From Octopus vulgaris (lineage: Eukaryota), in contig OX597834.1 in assembly GCA_951406725.2 (NCBI GenBank), positions 2,542,001 to 2,606,000 of the forward strand: 64,000 nt of DNA. Reading direction: 5' to 3'. Of the stretch, positions 10,309 through 18,574 are shown piece by piece. The translations under genes and the position numbers were made by a program. Below the pieces are notes generated by a model. The model saw only the letters and a program-made list of their open reading frames with translations. It did no database searches and was not told the origin of the DNA. Within the stretch, counting starts at the first letter, position 1, and each line of letters starts with the position of its first letter.

Positions 10309-10772
10309 ATCACTCGCCTTTCTGTCTACACACACTGCCATCTACTTATATATAAATATATATACACCCTCGACATTAACCTCTGTCTCTATATATAGCT
10401 TAGCAACGAAGCTCCTAATCTCTCTACCAAATTACCAACTATTTCAACACCCTACCTATCTACCTACCCCGAAATATTTCAACACCAACACCGCCAACAC
10501 GCGCCGAACGGTTGCAACAGCATCCACCATGTTTGTTTATCGGCTGCGTTGCTCTGTTTTGCCAAAAACAGGTGTGTTTCCCTCCTCAGCAAAACTAGAG
10601 GCAGCAGCAGATACCGAGTTCTTCTCCAACACCGAACACTGTGCCTGTCATTTCATTACTCAGGTAACTTAAGTAGAAGACTTTCTTCCACAGAAGATTC
10701 TCTTCAGATACCCAAACTTAGTTCCTTACATTCACGCCTTCTTAACTTCTTCTTTCTTCGGCTGCAACTCGA

Positions 10773-11320
<548 letters not shown>

Positions 11321-12475
11321 CTGCTCGCACGGACTTTGATGTATAAACAAACATAAGCACGCGTGTATTTAATTTTATACATTCATATAGCCATATACTT
11401 ATTGAAAGAGTTAAGTGAACGCACGCGCTGTATATATATATATATATATATATATACACAAGCAACAGAATCCGCAGTTCTTTTATATACATCTGTATAC
11501 AACTAACATCGTATAATTTTATCAAGTGATAATCGCACCAATCTATCTATCTGGCTACACACACACACACACACACACATACACACATATACACACACAC
11601 AGATTCAGGCATAAAAAGGGGAGAAAGCACGTGTCCTTACCCTTATACACACACACGCGCGCGCGCGCGCATTCACTCGCTTGCGCGCACTGACGTTGAT
11701 TTCAAGAGCTACGAGTAAGATAGAAAGAGAGGAAGAAGAGAGAGAGAGAGAGAGAGAGAGGAAGGATTGAGTAATAAAGAGAGTGGGTAGGAGGGAAGAG
11801 GGTTGGTTAGAGAGGAGTAGGCAGAGTATAAGAAAGAGTGTGAGGGAGGGAGAAGCAGTGAGAGAGGTGGAGTGAGAGCGAGAGGAGGAGGGAATATATA
11901 AAATAATTTAAATAGGTGGGAGGGAGGGAGGGACGTTTTTTACGGTGGGAGGAGAGGAAAGACGTGAGGAGTTGAGATAAAAATAAGATAGAGAGGGAGA
12001 GAGTAGGAGTGTGAGGCGGAGGTGTCGAACGAGAGGGAGTAGAGAGAAATAGAGATAGAGAGAGAGAGAGAGAGAAAGGGGTTGAAGTGCGTTTAGTGGT
12101 GGGGGCGTCGGTGAAAGGTAAGAGAAGCTCTGAAGCGGTAGAAAGGTTTTCTGTTTTGTTTGTTTGTGTGTGTGATTGTAGAGTGTGAAGCGAAACTGTT
12201 GAAGAAATCGTTGCATCCAGCACAGACGTCATTTTTAACTTGTGTTCACTTCCCAGCCAACATCGACACCAGCACCAACACCAACACCAACACCACATCG
12301 CATCAATTTTCGCGTCAGTTTGCCTCAAATTCCACAGGCTGACACGAACAAAATCAGCAGCAACAACAATAATAATAACAGCAACAGCAACAACTCCGAC
12401 CCACTCACCCCCTCCACCGCCAGGAAATATATAAATAAATAGAAACCACGAGCATTTCAGAAAGTGTGAGTAACT

Positions 12476-15400
12476 ATGGCAACGAACCTGAAACTTATGA
12501 AGGAGATTAACGAGCAGTTTCTGGTGTGCAAGATCTGCTTCGAGGCGTACAAGAACCCCAAGACGTTGACGTGTCTGCACACCTTTTGCAGCAACTGCTT
12601 ACAGAAACATGTCGACTCCGAGCAGGAGAGAACCTCTCGTTACACGCTCTACTCACGCCACGTTTATTGTCCAATATGCCGTAAGAAGACGGAGATACCG
12701 ACCGGAGGAATCCGGAGGTTACCGGATAACTTTCTGGTTTCCAACCTCACAGACGTTCTCAATCGGTTGAAGACTACAAAAGTGCAGCCCTGTGAGATTT
12801 GTCACACCGTGCGTAGCAGAAGCAATGAGGCGTGTTCGAAGTGCTTGGAATGTTCCAAACTGATGTGTAAGTCATGCGTGAAGCTTCATATGACCACGAA
12901 AGTAACGCAGAACCATAGTTTGTTTGATTTAGAAGGGGAGAAGGACATTGAATGTAAAGCTCATTCCGGGGAGATTGTGCGCTTCTATTGCGAACCTTGT
13001 GATGAATGTATTTGTGTGGTTTGCACATTCCAAGAACACCGTGACCACGAAATATGCTCGTTCAACGAGGGTTCAGCCAAATATAAATCGACCATCGAAA
13101 ACTTACTTAGTCATGGTAAAGACCGCTTGATTGATTTACGAATGAAATTGGGGATGATCAATAAGTGTGAAGGGGCCTTAAAGGATACCAGGGAACGCAT
13201 ACGAGACTTAGCCATCAGTTATATATCGCAAGTTCGCCAAACAGAGAAACAACTTCTGCAGAAAGTAGACGCCATGTTTGGAGATGAGATTCTTGATTTT
13301 CTCGAAAATAAATCCTGGCTTCAGGAAAACTTCGATAATTTACAGAATACTTGCAGCCTGGCTGAGATCATCGTCAAAGATAAAGGAATTGAAATTCTTC
13401 TTCTCAAAAAAGAACTCCAAAAGAAACTGGATGTCTTACTGCAACCGGATTTACCGGAAGTTCCACAACATTTGGCAACTAATATAAAGTTTGTACCTGG
13501 CTTCGTTAAGTTGGGCCACATCAGTGTTCCGGGCCGAGAAGAAGAAGATATGAACATCACCAGCGAAAAAGAAGCGAATTGTTCAGCGTTTAATCGGTCG
13601 ATGAGGTCTGAGATGAAACATATCGATATGCAGACCGATTGTGTGACATCGATGACAAGTTCCACCACAATGTCGACCGATGTTAACCGGGGAACTGCAG
13701 CCTCGCAGACGGCGAAAATAGAAACGGTGAATCGGTTGGCTGGCACCGATACCAACCACACAAGAGATAAATCGACGGAAGTCTATTGGATTGATCCAAA
13801 GTCACGTGGAACAATGACTGACCCACCACAGAGTCGGTCAAGGAGGAGTCAGACGTATTTGAATGACGATGCAAATATTACATCGATCTGCGAGACTTTG
13901 AAGAAGAATGTCACCACTGAATCAAAATCCATGGAAACGGAAGTGAGTATATCGTCTCTCGATGACGTCAGTACTGAAGATCTGCTGCTGCTGCAACGAG
14001 CCAAAAAATCTGGTTTGGAAATACAAAGTCTTTTATCTCCTTCACGAGGTCCAGCAGACAAACAGCCGGCCAGAACTGAAGAAAAAGGTATTGGAGAGGG
14101 TTCAGTTCTCACAAGCTGTGCGTCGATCAATACGGACAAGGTATTGATTTGTGACCGTAGGGTTAGTTCGCATCTTTCGCATGACTCCGGGTCTTGCAGT
14201 CCTGTCGTCGACAGAAAATCTCGCAGACTCAGCGCCGATATCCTTGCTTTGCAGCAGAAGTTTTCTGAACCTCACGTGCCTCGCTATCAAGATAGTGGCA
14301 AATCTTCCCCTCCATCTCCCAGCACGCCCCCAACCCCGACACGGTCATCTGGGCGTGGAAGTCCAGAGAGCACCCACTCTCGCAACGGTCAGAAAGAGAC
14401 GAGAAACATGGAAACTGATACTTCATCTTTACTCTCGTCACAGATTACCACCCAGGGAACATCTACGGATGCAGTGAAAACGGCCAGTGCCTCGAGCGAG
14501 GTCAAACCGACCACTAATTCGGTGGGGATCAGTGTCAGACCGAACTATAAAGACACTGGAACCGGTGACCAAATACTCACCTTAGAGGAGAAAGTATTTG
14601 TTGACGGTGAGACGTCTCCAATAAATGATTTGCCTGGAATTCTATTCGAAGACATTGAAGGATCCACAAATCGTTGCTTGTCGGCCACATCGGCATCGAA
14701 ACGGTCATCCAGCTGTTTTAGCGACGTTTGCACCGAAACAGAATCGCTAAAGATGAGGGATTCGCAGACTCTGACGTCAGTGTTAAAGACGGTCGATAAC
14801 TGGACACTGACGGACCGCACAGAATTCATCAACACCGCCACATCACCCATCTTAATACCGATGTGTGAAGTCGGAGTTTCAACGCTGAATCCGGTGCTCG
14901 TCAGTCAAGGAATGTCGACGGAGGCGGTGGAGCATGCCGACTGCCAAACTGAAACCAGTATATTCACACAGGACAGTGAGACGTTGACTGACAGAGTGAT
15001 CTCTACTGATGCACAGACCAACATCCACATCCACAGTGAGGACAGTCAAACGTGGATCGATTGCAGCACGCAATCGGAGACGGGAACCATGACGGAGACA
15101 GATGCAGGGACCAGCACCATTGAAGATTTTTTACTTTTAGCCGAAGGGGAACCGAGCGGAGATATAGCTAACATATCGGAGGTTATTGATTCCGACCAAG
15201 GGGCCAGCGAGGACGATATTTTCTTCGAACTTACAGAAGACGATGACGATCGAATGATGCACCAGTGTGTTCGAGGCTGGAATAATACGATGACTTTGCT
15301 GGAATCAATGGAGAACCACAACACGTCCCTTTGTAACAAGTGCTGTCTCCAGAAACCCGTTGAAGTGGCGCATAGGGCCACGATGTCGTCGCCCACCCTG

Positions 15401-17986
15401 ACTCACGATCAAGGGACTATGGTTCTATCCTTCAACACGGCACTAACAGAGTTCACTGACCGCAATGTCCAAACCATTCAGACCGCCGTGGCGGACAAGT
15501 CGATCGAAGCAGCTTTCAGCGACCCTCCGGGAAACTCGAACCTGGTCGCTGCCGAATGCAACGACGTTGCAACTTCGACCGAGTCGCTCGCCTACATGGG
15601 TCTGATGAGTGAGGTCGACATCAACGACCTCTATCTCTTGCCCGACTCGGCGTTCGATTTGCACTCGGATACAGATACGGCCAACTCCGAGTACGATTCG
15701 GACACACAGATCGAGATGGTGGACAGCGAGACTTCTATGGAGAATAGTCAGAGTGTTGAGGCTGGCACTCAAACTCCGATGATCACTGAGTGTGAAGGGC
15801 AATCACTGGGTCAGGAACCGGACCCACAGACGTTGTTGCAGATGATAAACGATGATGATTCGAAACATCTAGTGAGTATAGGGGTAAATACCATGCGTAA
15901 GGTAACCTATGAAAAGGAGACTAGCACACAGTCACGATATCTCTTTTCCAAAGGAACCATGACTTTCTATTTGAATAAATCAGATAAATCAACCGGTTCC
16001 AACAGGTCTTCGATCGCTTCCAGGAACAGCTTACTGATCGATCGTGTGGACAAGGACACAATGACATGCAGTGGTGGTACAAGTGAGAAGGGAGTTTCCA
16101 CTGACTCATCACAGCTCAATGAACAGGTAGCGGCTTGTATCAACAAGTTGAAAAATGTTCGCGATAAACTACAGAGCCCTACTTCGAAACAGGCCCCTGA
16201 GATTGGGGAACTGTCGCCGAAATCGTTGGCCAGAAAAAACAAGCCCGAGTTGAAAGACTTACTGGGGTCTACCAGCACCACCGAGTCAAGCAGCGTTGAC
16301 TCGGTTGGAACTGTTTCTGCGACGACATCAGGTTCCGAACCCTGTTCTCTGACGACCCCAACAACAACAACAAGACCAAAAAGTTCTTTATTTTCGTCTC
16401 CGTTGTTAGCGTTTTCTTCAACACCAACTTCGGTGACGTCATCAGGACATGGCGACAATAAACATTCGAGCTGTCCCGCAGCAGCAACGACGGCGTCAGC
16501 AACGGCGATAACAATGAGTTGCAGTGTCGGCTGTTCAACGACTTTATTAACAACGATGGCTTCGTCAAACAACACAATGTCCACGTCACTGTCGTCTGCT
16601 TCGCCATTGAGCGATAATCAACGAATCAGCGAGAGAACCACAACTCGAAAAGCGCAGCCAATCACCACATTAAAATGTAGATACAAAGACGTCAATGCCG
16701 CTGCCAATGGCCTCGATAAAAGCCAGACTCTTCCGCGTCAGTTTAGTGCACCAACTAATGATCTGCAGTTACAACAACAACAACAGCAACTACAACAACA
16801 ACAACTGCAACAACAACAAGCTGGTTTATTAAATTCTTCTCCAAGTCGTCTGCCTTTGTTGCGGTACAACTCGGCACCCGGAAAAATTGTCACAGTTCCC
16901 AAACACGCCCCCCCTAAAGATCTTAGTGTCTCCCCACAAACCTCGCCAAAGTCCACAAGTAAAATACCAACGACCAGGAAACTTAACGAATCCCAGAAAG
17001 ACACTATAAAAGATTACTACACAATAACTAATGCAAAACCAACAAACCAGCTACCATCGCTACCGGCAATCACTGAGACTCGAACCCCGCCCGGCTGTTC
17101 AGACCCTTCTGACTTGACTACCATGTCAAACTGTTATTCGAACTCCATGTCAGATTCATGCCCAGCACAAACCTTCTCCACTTTGTCTCCTACCTGTACA
17201 TCTCTGACCGCTGACGACACTTCTGTCGAGCCAGCCTCTCCAGCTACCGGCAAAAGGAACACGTTAGCGACACCAGATAGTCCATGTATAAGCGGCAGTA
17301 GTAGAGAATGTTCCCCTCAGACCCGGAAAACTGGCTTCATGCAGCGACTTCTCACTCGAAAACCAAAGAAAGACACTTCAAATGATTCCAGCAAAAGGCA
17401 ACAACGTCACCACCAGCGACCAGATTCTTCACCTGCCTCCGTATCGACATCGTCCAGTTCTTCAGCTCTGTCTATCAATGATTCCAAAAGTGCTACACCT
17501 TCTCCGAAGTCGCCACCAAAAAGCGGTCTGAGAGTGGGCAAGAAAGCCATGTCACCATCGCCAACATCGTCCTCAAAGACGTCAAGCACCAACGCCAATA
17601 CCAACAGACCTACAAGTGCCATTAATATGACGAACTCCGCGTCTCCGGCTTCCTCTGCGCAAGCAGCGGACGATAAAACGGCCAAATCGAAGAAAAGCCG
17701 TCCGTTTGTCTACATGCGACAGAGAATATTTTCGATCCAACACGATAACGAAGACAGTCCGGAGAGGAAGGCACGAGCGTTGGAACGTCAGAAGAAAACT
17801 GAGAAGAAGACGGAAAAGAAAAAAACAGGTTCGAGTGCAACTGACGGTAGCAACAGTAGCAGCAGTCCTGGTCTGAGAAGAGATCGATGTGAAGGAAACG
17901 GTAAAAATGGTCAGGGTCTGATCAAAACGAACGGAGAAGCGAATTTGTTGACGGTGGAAGGGCAATCATTTGCTGATGTGTGCTGA
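12476..17986 (+). CDS. TRIM/RBCC E3 ubiquitin ligase (RING, B-box1, B-box2, coiled coil; TRIM56/TRIM2-3/TRIM45-like N-terminus) with a ~1480-aa Ser/Thr-rich disordered tail; single coding exon
   Basis: Uninterrupted 1836-aa ORF with no microsatellite origin. RING: CKIC..CLHTFCSNC..CPIC followed by the LPDNF motif. B-box1: CEIC..CSKCLECSKLMCKSCVKLH. B-box2: CKAH..FYCEPCDECICVVC..EHRDH. Helical coiled-coil region to ~aa 330. Start context actATGG with an in-frame TGA 9 nt upstream. No filamin, NHL or SPRY domain recognisable. Confidence 0.95.
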   Translation: MATNLKLMKEINEQFLVCKICFEAYKNPKTLTCLHTFCSNCLQKHVDSEQERTSRYTLYSRHVYCPICRKKTEIPTGGIRRLPDNFLVSNLTDVLNRLKTTKVQPCEICHTVRSRSNEACSKCLECSKLMCKSCVKLHMTTKVTQNHSLFDLEGEKDIECKAHSGEIVRFYCEPCDECICVVCTFQEHRDHEICSFNEGSAKYKSTIENLLSHGKDRLIDLRMKLGMINKCEGALKDTRERIRDLAISYISQVRQTEKQLLQKVDAMFGDEILDFLENKSWLQENFDNLQNTCSLAEIIVKDKGIEILLLKKELQKKLDVLLQPDLPEVPQHLATNIKFVPGFVKLGHISVPGREEEDMNITSEKEANCSAFNRSMRSEMKHIDMQTDCVTSMTSSTTMSTDVNRGTAASQTAKIETVNRLAGTDTNHTRDKSTEVYWIDPKSRGTMTDPPQSRSRRSQTYLNDDANITSICETLKKNVTTESKSMETEVSISSLDDVSTEDLLLLQRAKKSGLEIQSLLSPSRGPADKQPARTEEKGIGEGSVLTSCASINTDKVLICDRRVSSHLSHDSGSCSPVVDRKSRRLSADILALQQKFSEPHVPRYQDSGKSSPPSPSTPPTPTRSSGRGSPESTHSRNGQKETRNMETDTSSLLSSQITTQGTSTDAVKTASASSEVKPTTNSVGISVRPNYKDTGTGDQILTLEEKVFVDGETSPINDLPGILFEDIEGSTNRCLSATSASKRSSSCFSDVCTETESLKMRDSQTLTSVLKTVDNWTLTDRTEFINTATSPILIPMCEVGVSTLNPVLVSQGMSTEAVEHADCQTETSIFTQDSETLTDRVISTDAQTNIHIHSEDSQTWIDCSTQSETGTMTETDAGTSTIEDFLLLAEGEPSGDIANISEVIDSDQGASEDDIFFELTEDDDDRMMHQCVRGWNNTMTLLESMENHNTSLCNKCCLQKPVEVAHRATMSSPTLTHDQGTMVLSFNTALTEFTDRNVQTIQTAVADKSIEAAFSDPPGNSNLVAAECNDVATSTESLAYMGLMSEVDINDLYLLPDSAFDLHSDTDTANSEYDSDTQIEMVDSETSMENSQSVEAGTQTPMITECEGQSLGQEPDPQTLLQMINDDDSKHLVSIGVNTMRKVTYEKETSTQSRYLFSKGTMTFYLNKSDKSTGSNRSSIASRNSLLIDRVDKDTMTCSGGTSEKGVSTDSSQLNEQVAACINKLKNVRDKLQSPTSKQAPEIGELSPKSLARKNKPELKDLLGSTSTTESSSVDSVGTVSATTSGSEPCSLTTPTTTTRPKSSLFSSPLLAFSSTPTSVTSSGHGDNKHSSCPAAATTASATAITMSCSVGCSTTLLTTMASSNNTMSTSLSSASPLSDNQRISERTTTRKAQPITTLKCRYKDVNAAANGLDKSQTLPRQFSAPTNDLQLQQQQQQLQQQQLQQQQAGLLNSSPSRLPLLRYNSAPGKIVTVPKHAPPKDLSVSPQTSPKSTSKIPTTRKLNESQKDTIKDYYTITNAKPTNQLPSLPAITETRTPPGCSDPSDLTTMSNCYSNSMSDSCPAQTFSTLSPTCTSLTADDTSVEPASPATGKRNTLATPDSPCISGSSRECSPQTRKTGFMQRLLTRKPKKDTSNDSSKRQQRHHQRPDSSPASVSTSSSSSALSINDSKSATPSPKSPPKSGLRVGKKAMSPSPTSSSKTSSTNANTNRPTSAINMTNSASPASSAQAADDKTAKSKKSRPFVYMRQRIFSIQHDNEDSPERKARALERQKKTEKKTEKKKTGSSATDGSNSSSSPGLRRDRCEGNGKNGQGLIKTNGEANLLTVEGQSFADVC

Positions 17987-18574
17987 GAACTTATACATTT
18001 ATAGATGCATATACACATAGATGCATGCATGCATACAACATATAATATATATATATATGTATGTATGTATATAAAATGAAAATAGTGATGATAAAGGACG
18101 ATAAAAGTTGTAGTAACAATATTTATATTGATGATGATGATGATGATGATGGTTACACGAAGAGAGATACCGAAGGAATAGTTCCGTGTCTGCTTCCTCT
18201 GACTCCATTTTCACACAGACGACGTTACAAGGTGAAGTGTCATACGACAGTCAGTGCGGGGTGGGAGGGGTGGGGCTTCGTTAGCATATCTAACTGAAAA
18301 CCTGGAAGAAGGAAGAGGGGGAGGAGAAGGGAGAGGAAGAGTTGAAGGGAGAGAGGGAGAAGAAGGAGATATTGAGACAGAGAAGCCGGTAAGACGTGTC
18401 GGTCATGGTGGAATAGATCATTTCTAAATGTTACTATGACCACCCCTAGTAAGACTTGAACCCGGCACTGTGAGATATTGAAATATTACAGTGTAGCGAC
18501 ATTATCGTCGCCACCATACCATCGACATCAGTACTCTATCCAGAGCAATTGCACTCAGTCTCCCACTGAATAGG

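Follow-up and report, generated by a model that had tools for sequence, protein, structure and literature searches.

A TRIM protein of Octopus vulgaris with a conserved, clustered array of candidate LC8-binding motifs in its tail

The locus and the RBCC head

The window analysed here is a stretch of 64,000 nucleotides of Octopus vulgaris DNA, and all nucleotide positions are counted from its first letter. It holds an uninterrupted open reading frame of 1836 aa, in which a RING, two B-boxes and a coiled coil are followed by a tail of about 1480 aa. Since one contig of a public run spans positions 12303-18008 without joints, the frame is not an artefact of assembly. A protein of Octopus bimaculoides is 94% identical over the full length and is labelled a "serine-rich adhesin", and other homologues have been named "mucin-like" or "serine-rich" by annotation pipelines. 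A CA microsatellite of about 600 bases lies upstream of the gene (positions 10700-11320), and some of the other long frames in the window may be simple repeats. The frame and the elements of its head are the following.

12476-17986, plus strand: single open reading frame of 1836 aa, TRIM (RBCC) head and long tail
12527-12679, plus strand: C3HC4 RING, aa 18-68 (Pfam PF00097, E 1.2e-9)
12791-12916, plus strand: B-box 1, aa 106-147 (Cys/His pattern; confident in the AlphaFold2 model)
12944-13060, plus strand: B-box 2, aa 157-195 (Pfam PF00643, E 3.8e-8)
13061-13441, plus strand: long coiled-coil helix and hairpin helix, aa 196-322 (AlphaFold2 model)

The N-terminal order of RING, B-boxes and coiled coil is that of the TRIM (RBCC) proteins. 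The AlphaFold2 model of aa 1-370 (mean pLDDT 83.8) comprises the RING, two B-boxes, a long helix and a hairpin helix, with helices at aa 196-277, 279-301 and 306-322 of the modelled monomer, and was matched by Foldseek to the KAP1 RBCC (E 3.5e-8). Pfam recognises only the RING (aa 18-68) and one B-box (aa 157-195) and no domain in the tail; matches of homologues to PF22586 (B-box 1) are all below the cut-off. TRIM2/3 and KAP1 are the nearest solved structures to the head, and for the RING region the closest ones are those of class VII TRIM2 and TRIM3 and of TRIM56 (E 1e-21 to 1e-30, 42-44% identity). Unlike TRIM2/3, the octopus protein has two B-boxes and a tail of the length given above without filamin or NHL domain, and no Pfam match to these domains was found beyond the RBCC in the query or in six relatives, which places it outside the class VII TRIM-NHL proteins.

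The zinc ligands, the linchpin Arg and the ubiquitin-contacting Phe are all present in the RING region, and the linchpin Arg is kept in 63 of 66 proteins. Because Arg69 and Phe86, located just past the RING, align with R64 (linchpin) and F81 (ubiquitin-contacting) of TRIM2, whose roles are described in PMC9732051, the RING looks intact, and the protein is probably a ligase. The coiled coils of TRIM proteins are antiparallel, L2 packing back at the centre in TRIM5alpha (PMC5667893, PMC9732051), and TRIM RINGs generally need dimerisation (PMC9732051). By analogy, the octopus RBCC would form an antiparallel dimer with L2 returning to the centre.

The motif array and its conservation

A preliminary description of this locus, made from the letters alone, had pointed to a hexamer, [DENS]-x-x-[TSVM]-x-T, recurring every 11-12 residues between aa 382 and aa 1210, most densely at aa 750-881. 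The positions given there (aa 382 at nt 13619, aa 750-881 at nt 14723-15118, the end of aa 1210 at nt 16105) all lie inside the frame, and the repeat is real. The pattern occurs 29 times in aa 382-1215, compared with 12.6+-3.2 in composition shuffles, none of the 3000 shuffles having reached 29. It is concentrated in aa 748-886 (11 vs. 3.3 in shuffles); aa 382-747 hold 7 vs. 5.3 (p 0.28), and the equally Ser/Thr-rich aa 1230-1836 are not enriched (8 vs. 7.7). The autocorrelation of Thr over aa 382-1215 peaks at lag 12 (z 4.9). The motif groups recognised in our analysis are as follows.

13616-13855, plus strand: first, looser group of LC8-type motifs, aa 381-460 (profile sites aa 386, 435, 447)
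14720-15118, plus strand: dense ladder, aa 749-881 (anchors 754, 766, 778, 790, 802, 814, 826, 837, 849, then weaker to about 880)
15404-15583, plus strand: three spaced single motifs, anchors aa 982, 999 and 1034, conserved despite their isolation
15719-15778, plus strand: motif pair, anchors aa 1087 and 1099, the second being the only literal TQT
15872-16003, plus strand: run of three to four motifs at period 12, anchors aa 1138, 1150, 1162 and a weaker 1174, strongly conserved
16046-16105, plus strand: last motif pair, anchors aa 1196 and 1208 (profile, alignment)

While the motifs are thus enriched and periodic, the array is discontinuous and forms several clusters in octopus, not one ladder. 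Eighteen of the 26 hexamers originally listed fit the pattern proposed for them and the other eight do not, and the period, well reflected in the lag of Thr, is broken by the final step of the dense run, which is 8 residues. The first group is not enriched for the original pattern but is enriched for a wider one. The motifs are of the Thr-x-Thr type, and a single literal TQT occurs in the tail; an ELM-like LC8 pattern, in the form we assume it to have, gave no match there. Between the clusters, at about aa 1037-1060 (positions 15602-15660), a block of hydrophobic and acidic residues that does not belong to the repeat is kept in molluscs.

As had been supposed, the period is not obvious in the DNA: no tandem DNA repeat underlies the motifs, and codons at lag 11/12 are the same in 13 of 31 cases within the dense run (9.5 expected, in frame). 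An origin of the array as a DNA tandem repeat was rejected on these two grounds. The array is single-copy, only one significant genomic match to it being found. It has no Pfam domain, and AlphaFold2, run on the array alone with 52 aligned sequences, gave no confident fold (pLDDT 49.8, pTM 0.16); both results would agree with a disordered region but do not prove it.

All 65 long homologues that were found carry the array. Those with names come from one cephalopod, gastropods, bivalves, a chiton, the annelid Paralvinella and the brachiopod Lingula, and for Thr, lag 12 ranks in the top three in 63 of 66 proteins (mean z 5.4). With a 12-column profile, trained on 63 homologues that did not include the three closest sequences, seeded with D/E, T/V/I and T and built from orthologues that are not independent, 27 sites were found in the query (3.2 in shuffles) and 20-80 per protein in the 66 proteins (2-7 in shuffles). 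At a looser cut-off the query has 31 sites, only 12 of them in runs of three or more. Gaps between neighbouring sites of the family amount to 12 residues in 1284 of 2478 cases and to 11 in 141 (together 1425). In 40 of 59 proteins, 30-49 residues separate the first site from the conserved strand at the end of the RBCC.

The expectation that the anchors and the 12-residue period should be conserved above the linkers was borne out in 48 aligned mollusc-type rows. Between aa 766 and aa 849 all 48 orthologues share one and the same spacing, and the spacing of the run at aa 1138-1162 equals 12 in all 47 rows with letters. Mean conservation over 19 sites and 48 rows is 0.90 at +1, 0.79 at -1 and 0.70 at -4 (0 being the middle residue of Thr-x-Thr), as compared with 0.45-0.50 in the linkers, so that the anchors are about twice as conserved as the linkers.

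Site numbers vary from about 27-45 in molluscs to 50-80 in some relatives (68 in an annelid, 60 in a brachiopod). At the looser cut-off, a further run of 6-9 sites, absent from octopus, lies upstream in each of the five other bivalve and gastropod proteins that were checked, and two relatives have unbroken runs of 15-16 sites. One relative (P0053) has up to 95 sites, and its many near-identical 12-mers (aa 894-1347) look like a recent amplification.

A search with the array against 1.84 billion representatives yielded 18 matches at E <= 0.001, of which 13 were known family members and three were fragments with the array. Two prokaryote-like matches were unrelated and without the period, and were rejected as composition matches. 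In ESM Atlas the array gave no usable match, and a near-identical full protein gave only matches below 0.9; the best, at 0.88, is a RING cluster dominated by arthropods and no more than a lead. A PDB sequence search with aa 1129-1235 returned only lamin, at a non-significant E of 0.33.

Site chemistry, distal tail and short-tailed relatives

To be independent of the seeds of the profile, the residue preferences were also derived from 1465 sites for which nothing was required but [TVI]xT and a partner at a distance of 12 residues. At these sites Asp is enriched 5.7x and bulky hydrophobics fall to 0.11x at -4; Lys (4.3x) and Arg (2.0x) are enriched at -3, Gly (4.3x) and Ala (2.5x) at -2, and Asp, Glu and Pro, each about 2x, at +2, while Pro is depleted to 0.05-0.19x from -6 to 0. 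With T/V/I at -1 and Thr at +1, these flanks agree with the position rules for LC8 sites stated in PMC6607443 (a polar residue at -4, a large basic one at -3, a small one at -2, D/E/P at +2 and no Pro within). At -1, Thr is swapped for Val/Ile (22.6%) and rarely for Ser (3.9%), and at +1 Ser makes up 1.0%, though it constitutes 10.8% of the region; both preferences fit buried branched side chains.

Other properties depart from the canonical TQT anchor. Gln stands at position 0 in 3 of 27 query anchors and in 212 of 2546 family anchors (8-11%), and some 41% of the anchors in the family, among them Glu, Ala, Cys, Leu, Thr and Trp, are outside the set Q/N/M/S/G that PMC12057147 gives as observed in LC8 sites. 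According to PMC6607443, anchor deviations abolish the binding of single peptides, bulky aromatics at -2 are absent from tight binders, and binding is disfavoured where several like charges occur; one site of the ladder carries Trp at -2 without exception, and acidic residues prevail in the dense run (24 D/E vs. 5 K/R). The non-canonical octopus sites would, judging by their residues, not bind LC8 singly. The genome encodes an LC8 of 89 aa (L006), more than 90% identical to vertebrate DYNLL, as well as two more divergent PF01221 dynein light chain matches (L007, L008). The tail also has features reported for KANK1, namely runs of weak-type sites on uniform linkers of 3-4 residues and adjacent elements predicted to dimerise, the RBCC coiled coil upstream and a conserved helix at the end. 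The initial view of the tail as an LC8 scaffold is thus supported in part, by motif density, conservation and flank chemistry, and is weakened by the few Gln anchors and the clustered layout; binding of LC8 by the tail motifs appears likely.

The short helix noted earlier after the array was recovered, and the roughly 600 residues past it hold further conserved motifs that the preliminary description did not include.

16115-16171, plus strand: conserved, likely amphipathic helix (by its residue pattern), aa 1214-1232, ending the array
16862-16879, plus strand: RxxSxP, aa 1463, which we take to be a 14-3-3 motif and hence a candidate site; in register in 46 of 48 rows
16958-16969, plus strand: SxIP, candidate EB-binding (microtubule plus-end) motif, aa 1495; 29 of 48 rows
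17060-17077, plus strand: LxxIxE, candidate PP2A-B56 docking motif, aa 1529; 40 of 48 rows
17336-17368, plus strand: short hydrophobic-then-basic motif, aa 1621-1631; 45 of 48 rows

The core of the helix is present in 62 of 66 long proteins, and in 55 of these 62 the last site lies 13 residues before it (range 12-15); sites per 100 aa number 4.09 up to the helix and 0.08 beyond it. LxxIxE, which corresponds to the PP2A-B56 docking motif as defined in PMC8786283, was matched 45 times (2.5 in shuffles). The basic, non-acidic context described for SxIP (PMC4834103) is found in octopus and in 18 of 47 mollusc-type rows, and the motif is patchy outside molluscs. As pattern matches, these distal candidates suggest a phospho-regulated cytoskeletal anchor. 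A CAA-type triplet array (positions 16771-16819) encodes polyglutamine in the distal tail, and such a stretch is also present in one other cephalopod-like homologue (P0003).

A sister family with short tails exists in molluscs, annelids, rotifers and flatworms. Its one copy in the octopus genome (L002:943-2766, minus strand) is 48% identical over the RBCC and has three profile sites, including a 12-spaced pair. Among 104 short hits, 51 with a locatable tail carry 164 sites, compared with 19.6 in shuffles, 18 of the 164 coming from one long-form fragment. The sites number 1-7 per tail and are mostly scattered; their anchors are more canonical (Gln 39%, Asn 27% in the 51 tails, the long-form fragment included), and the 12-spaced pair is conserved. 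In a FastTree tree of 49 RBCC regions the long forms make up one clade (support 0.998) together with a nemertean and a Priapulus protein. The latter (P0261) has a weak NHL trace (E 0.02, below the cut-off) and a few QT-type motifs past the RBCC, and may mark an ancestral TRIM-NHL state, its gene model being possibly incomplete. We infer that the array arose by amplification of a few ancestral sites, and that an NHL domain was possibly lost.

Proposed mechanism, alternatives and known systems

We consider it probable, on the basis of residue preferences and spacing, that the conserved Thr-x-Thr-type clusters bind LC8 (DYNLL) dimers cooperatively and that two tails are thereby zipped into stiff segments joined by flexible hinges. 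As the coiled coil would be antiparallel and L2 packed back at its centre, both tails would leave the RBCC dimer near the two-fold axis and would be pre-paired. Each motif of 8 residues would then add a beta-strand to an LC8 dimer, and the linkers of 3-4 residues would permit weak sites to be filled cooperatively, as in KANK1; held in register by the LC8 dimers, the two tails would form hinged rod segments. With about 3.5 nm for each dimer, a value taken from KANK1 (53 nm/15), the octopus dense run would span 30-40 nm. The zipper would end in the short helix, whose two copies may, as in Swallow, form a coiled coil after LC8 has bound. In the weakest step of this proposal, the rod would serve as a spacer, double the avidity of the distal candidate 14-3-3, EB and PP2A-B56 sites, and hold the ligase at a set distance from its cytoskeletal anchor. 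Phosphorylation may regulate the sites of the array.

The preliminary description also proposed that LC8 occupancy could tune the clustering of RINGs. Our results do not support this; the RINGs of an antiparallel dimer are at opposite ends of the coiled coil and would not be joined by in-register zipping of the tails. Control of the ligase by LC8 would need bridging between dimers, of the kind described for 53BP1 and LCA5 (PMC12017986), and is a speculation by analogy.

Four other explanations of the array were weighed. That the protein is an ordinary LC8 client is unlikely: here only the near-canonical motifs (the first post-RBCC site, aa 1099 and aa 1138-1162) would bind, and the ladder would stay at low occupancy, acting as an ASCIZ-like heterogeneous rheostat and not as a rod. 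The rarity of Gln anchors, the short paralogue that manages with few better sites and the long gaps between clusters, which favour heterogeneity in ASCIZ (PMC10046861), would all agree with this, but no part of the tail is better conserved than the non-Gln ladder, its spacing being fixed in every one of the 48 rows, and weak sites on short even linkers are the KANK1 signature of cooperative loading (10.1101/2025.07.16.665182). Self-folding of the repeats without LC8, to give a beta-solenoid or a cross-beta rod that displays a Thr-x-Thr ladder, is in our judgement quite unlikely. It would account for the strict period; hydrophobics at +4, -6, -1 and +1 could supply two strands for each turn, and TxT solenoids do exist (PMC4838330). 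Their middle residue, however, points inward (PMC4838330), whereas that of the motifs studied here varies, with Glu, Ser or Asn in many of them; prolines occupy +2 to +4, isolated single motifs are conserved, the 1-7 sites of the short paralogues are too few, and the AlphaFold2 run predicts no fold, although this last point is weak evidence.

Very unlikely, in our estimate, is an array of sites for another strand-adding dimer, of Tctex type or a divergent dynein light chain paralogue. The departure of the anchors from the Gln rule and the two divergent PF01221 matches in the genome speak for it, yet all flank preferences match canonical LC8 and the Gln-anchored sites of the paralogue look canonical. 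Finally, the acidic residue three before Thr, the acidic residues after it, the abundance of Ser/Thr and the "mucin-like" or "serine-rich" annotation could be taken as signs of a modification array, with phospho-sites of CK1/CK2 (by the consensus we assume for these kinases) or O-glycosylation; the exchange of Thr for the unmodifiable Val and Ile, not for Ser, largely refutes it. Together with the related idea of a decayed minisatellite, against which stand the lack of a DNA repeat and the spacing kept across mollusc classes, this explanation is hardly credible.

The zipper of LC8 dimers, if true, would mean an LC8-built rod on an E3 ligase, with several times the 15 sites of KANK1; no described case of such a rod was found in the open-access literature searched, within which this type of head, the number of sites and the family as such also appear undescribed. 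The new elements are the TRIM head, the number of sites, the conserved end helix and the conserved distal docking motifs, while the mechanism is of a known kind. The family supplies more than 2500 aligned natural sites, mostly non-Gln, and a short-tailed paralogue as a built-in comparison, which makes the rules of weak-site cooperativity and the limits of ladder length directly testable, and a role that can be put to the test is offered for an invertebrate TRIM that is conserved and labelled as "mucin-like" or "serine-rich adhesin". A wider scenario, which we hold to be rather doubtful as a whole, is that a spiralian TRIM subfamily has swapped its substrate-binding domain for the largest known LC8 ladders by amplifying a few ancestral sites (unbroken runs of up to 16), giving a hinged rod of 100-300 nm with the ligase at one end and phospho-regulated microtubule-tip motifs at the other, which would be both a ruler for the place of ubiquitination and a large LC8 sink.

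Among known systems, the TxT ice-binding beta-solenoids share Thr-x-Thr at a regular period (PMC4838330), but they are self-folding coils with an inward middle residue; the octopus tail is without an inward hydrophobic or Cys middle residue, contains prolines, has no predicted fold and belongs to a cytosolic-type TRIM head. In Swallow and the dynein intermediate chain an LC8 site adjoins a weak self-associating helix (PMC12017986), and here the last candidate site is close to the conserved end helix, although the coiled coil of Swallow is N-terminal to the LC8 motif (PMC12017986) and the octopus helix caps the array C-terminally. ASCIZ/ATMIN (7-11 sites) and Nup159 (5 sites), which were named earlier as the precedents, also have multiple LC8 sites in a disordered region, but their sites are stronger and predictable, their complexes are described as sub-stoichiometric, and the linkers of ASCIZ are uneven (PMC12017986, PMC10046861); the octopus TRIM protein has a strict period and mostly non-Gln anchors.

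KANK1, with its weak non-TQT sites, linkers of 3-4 residues and cooperative rod, is the closer precedent. In its L2 region 15 weak sites form an LC8 rod of about 53 nm; five peptides were tested and none showed measurable binding, but 7 and 15 LC8 dimers load cooperatively over linkers of 3-4 residues, and weak sites on short even linkers are presented as the signature of full cooperative loading (10.1101/2025.07.16.665182). The same report asks whether LC8-driven rods are a general design and states that predictors miss non-canonical sites. An octopus KANK gene (L010:746-6094, plus strand, frame of 1783 aa) has Val/Gly/Thr motifs at 11-12 spacing in aa 520-730, and our profile detected in it a run of three 12-spaced sites (0 of 300 shuffles, in a region picked after seeing the sequence); over the whole frame it found 6 sites vs. 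4.1 expected (p 0.23). These motifs are suggestive of conservation of the KANK1 LC8 ladder in octopus. The octopus TRIM tail resembles KANK1 L2, as described in that report, in being a long, probably disordered linker past a coiled coil, with weak non-TQT anchors (TNT, TST, VNT, VMA and IGC in KANK1), linkers of 3-4 residues that give the 11-12 period, and hinges that split the clusters. The two differ in that KANK1 has ankyrin repeats at its end and measured binding of 7 and 15 dimers, whereas the octopus protein combines an RBCC head with a tail that has no folded C-terminal domain and, across its homologues, 20-80 candidate sites per protein.
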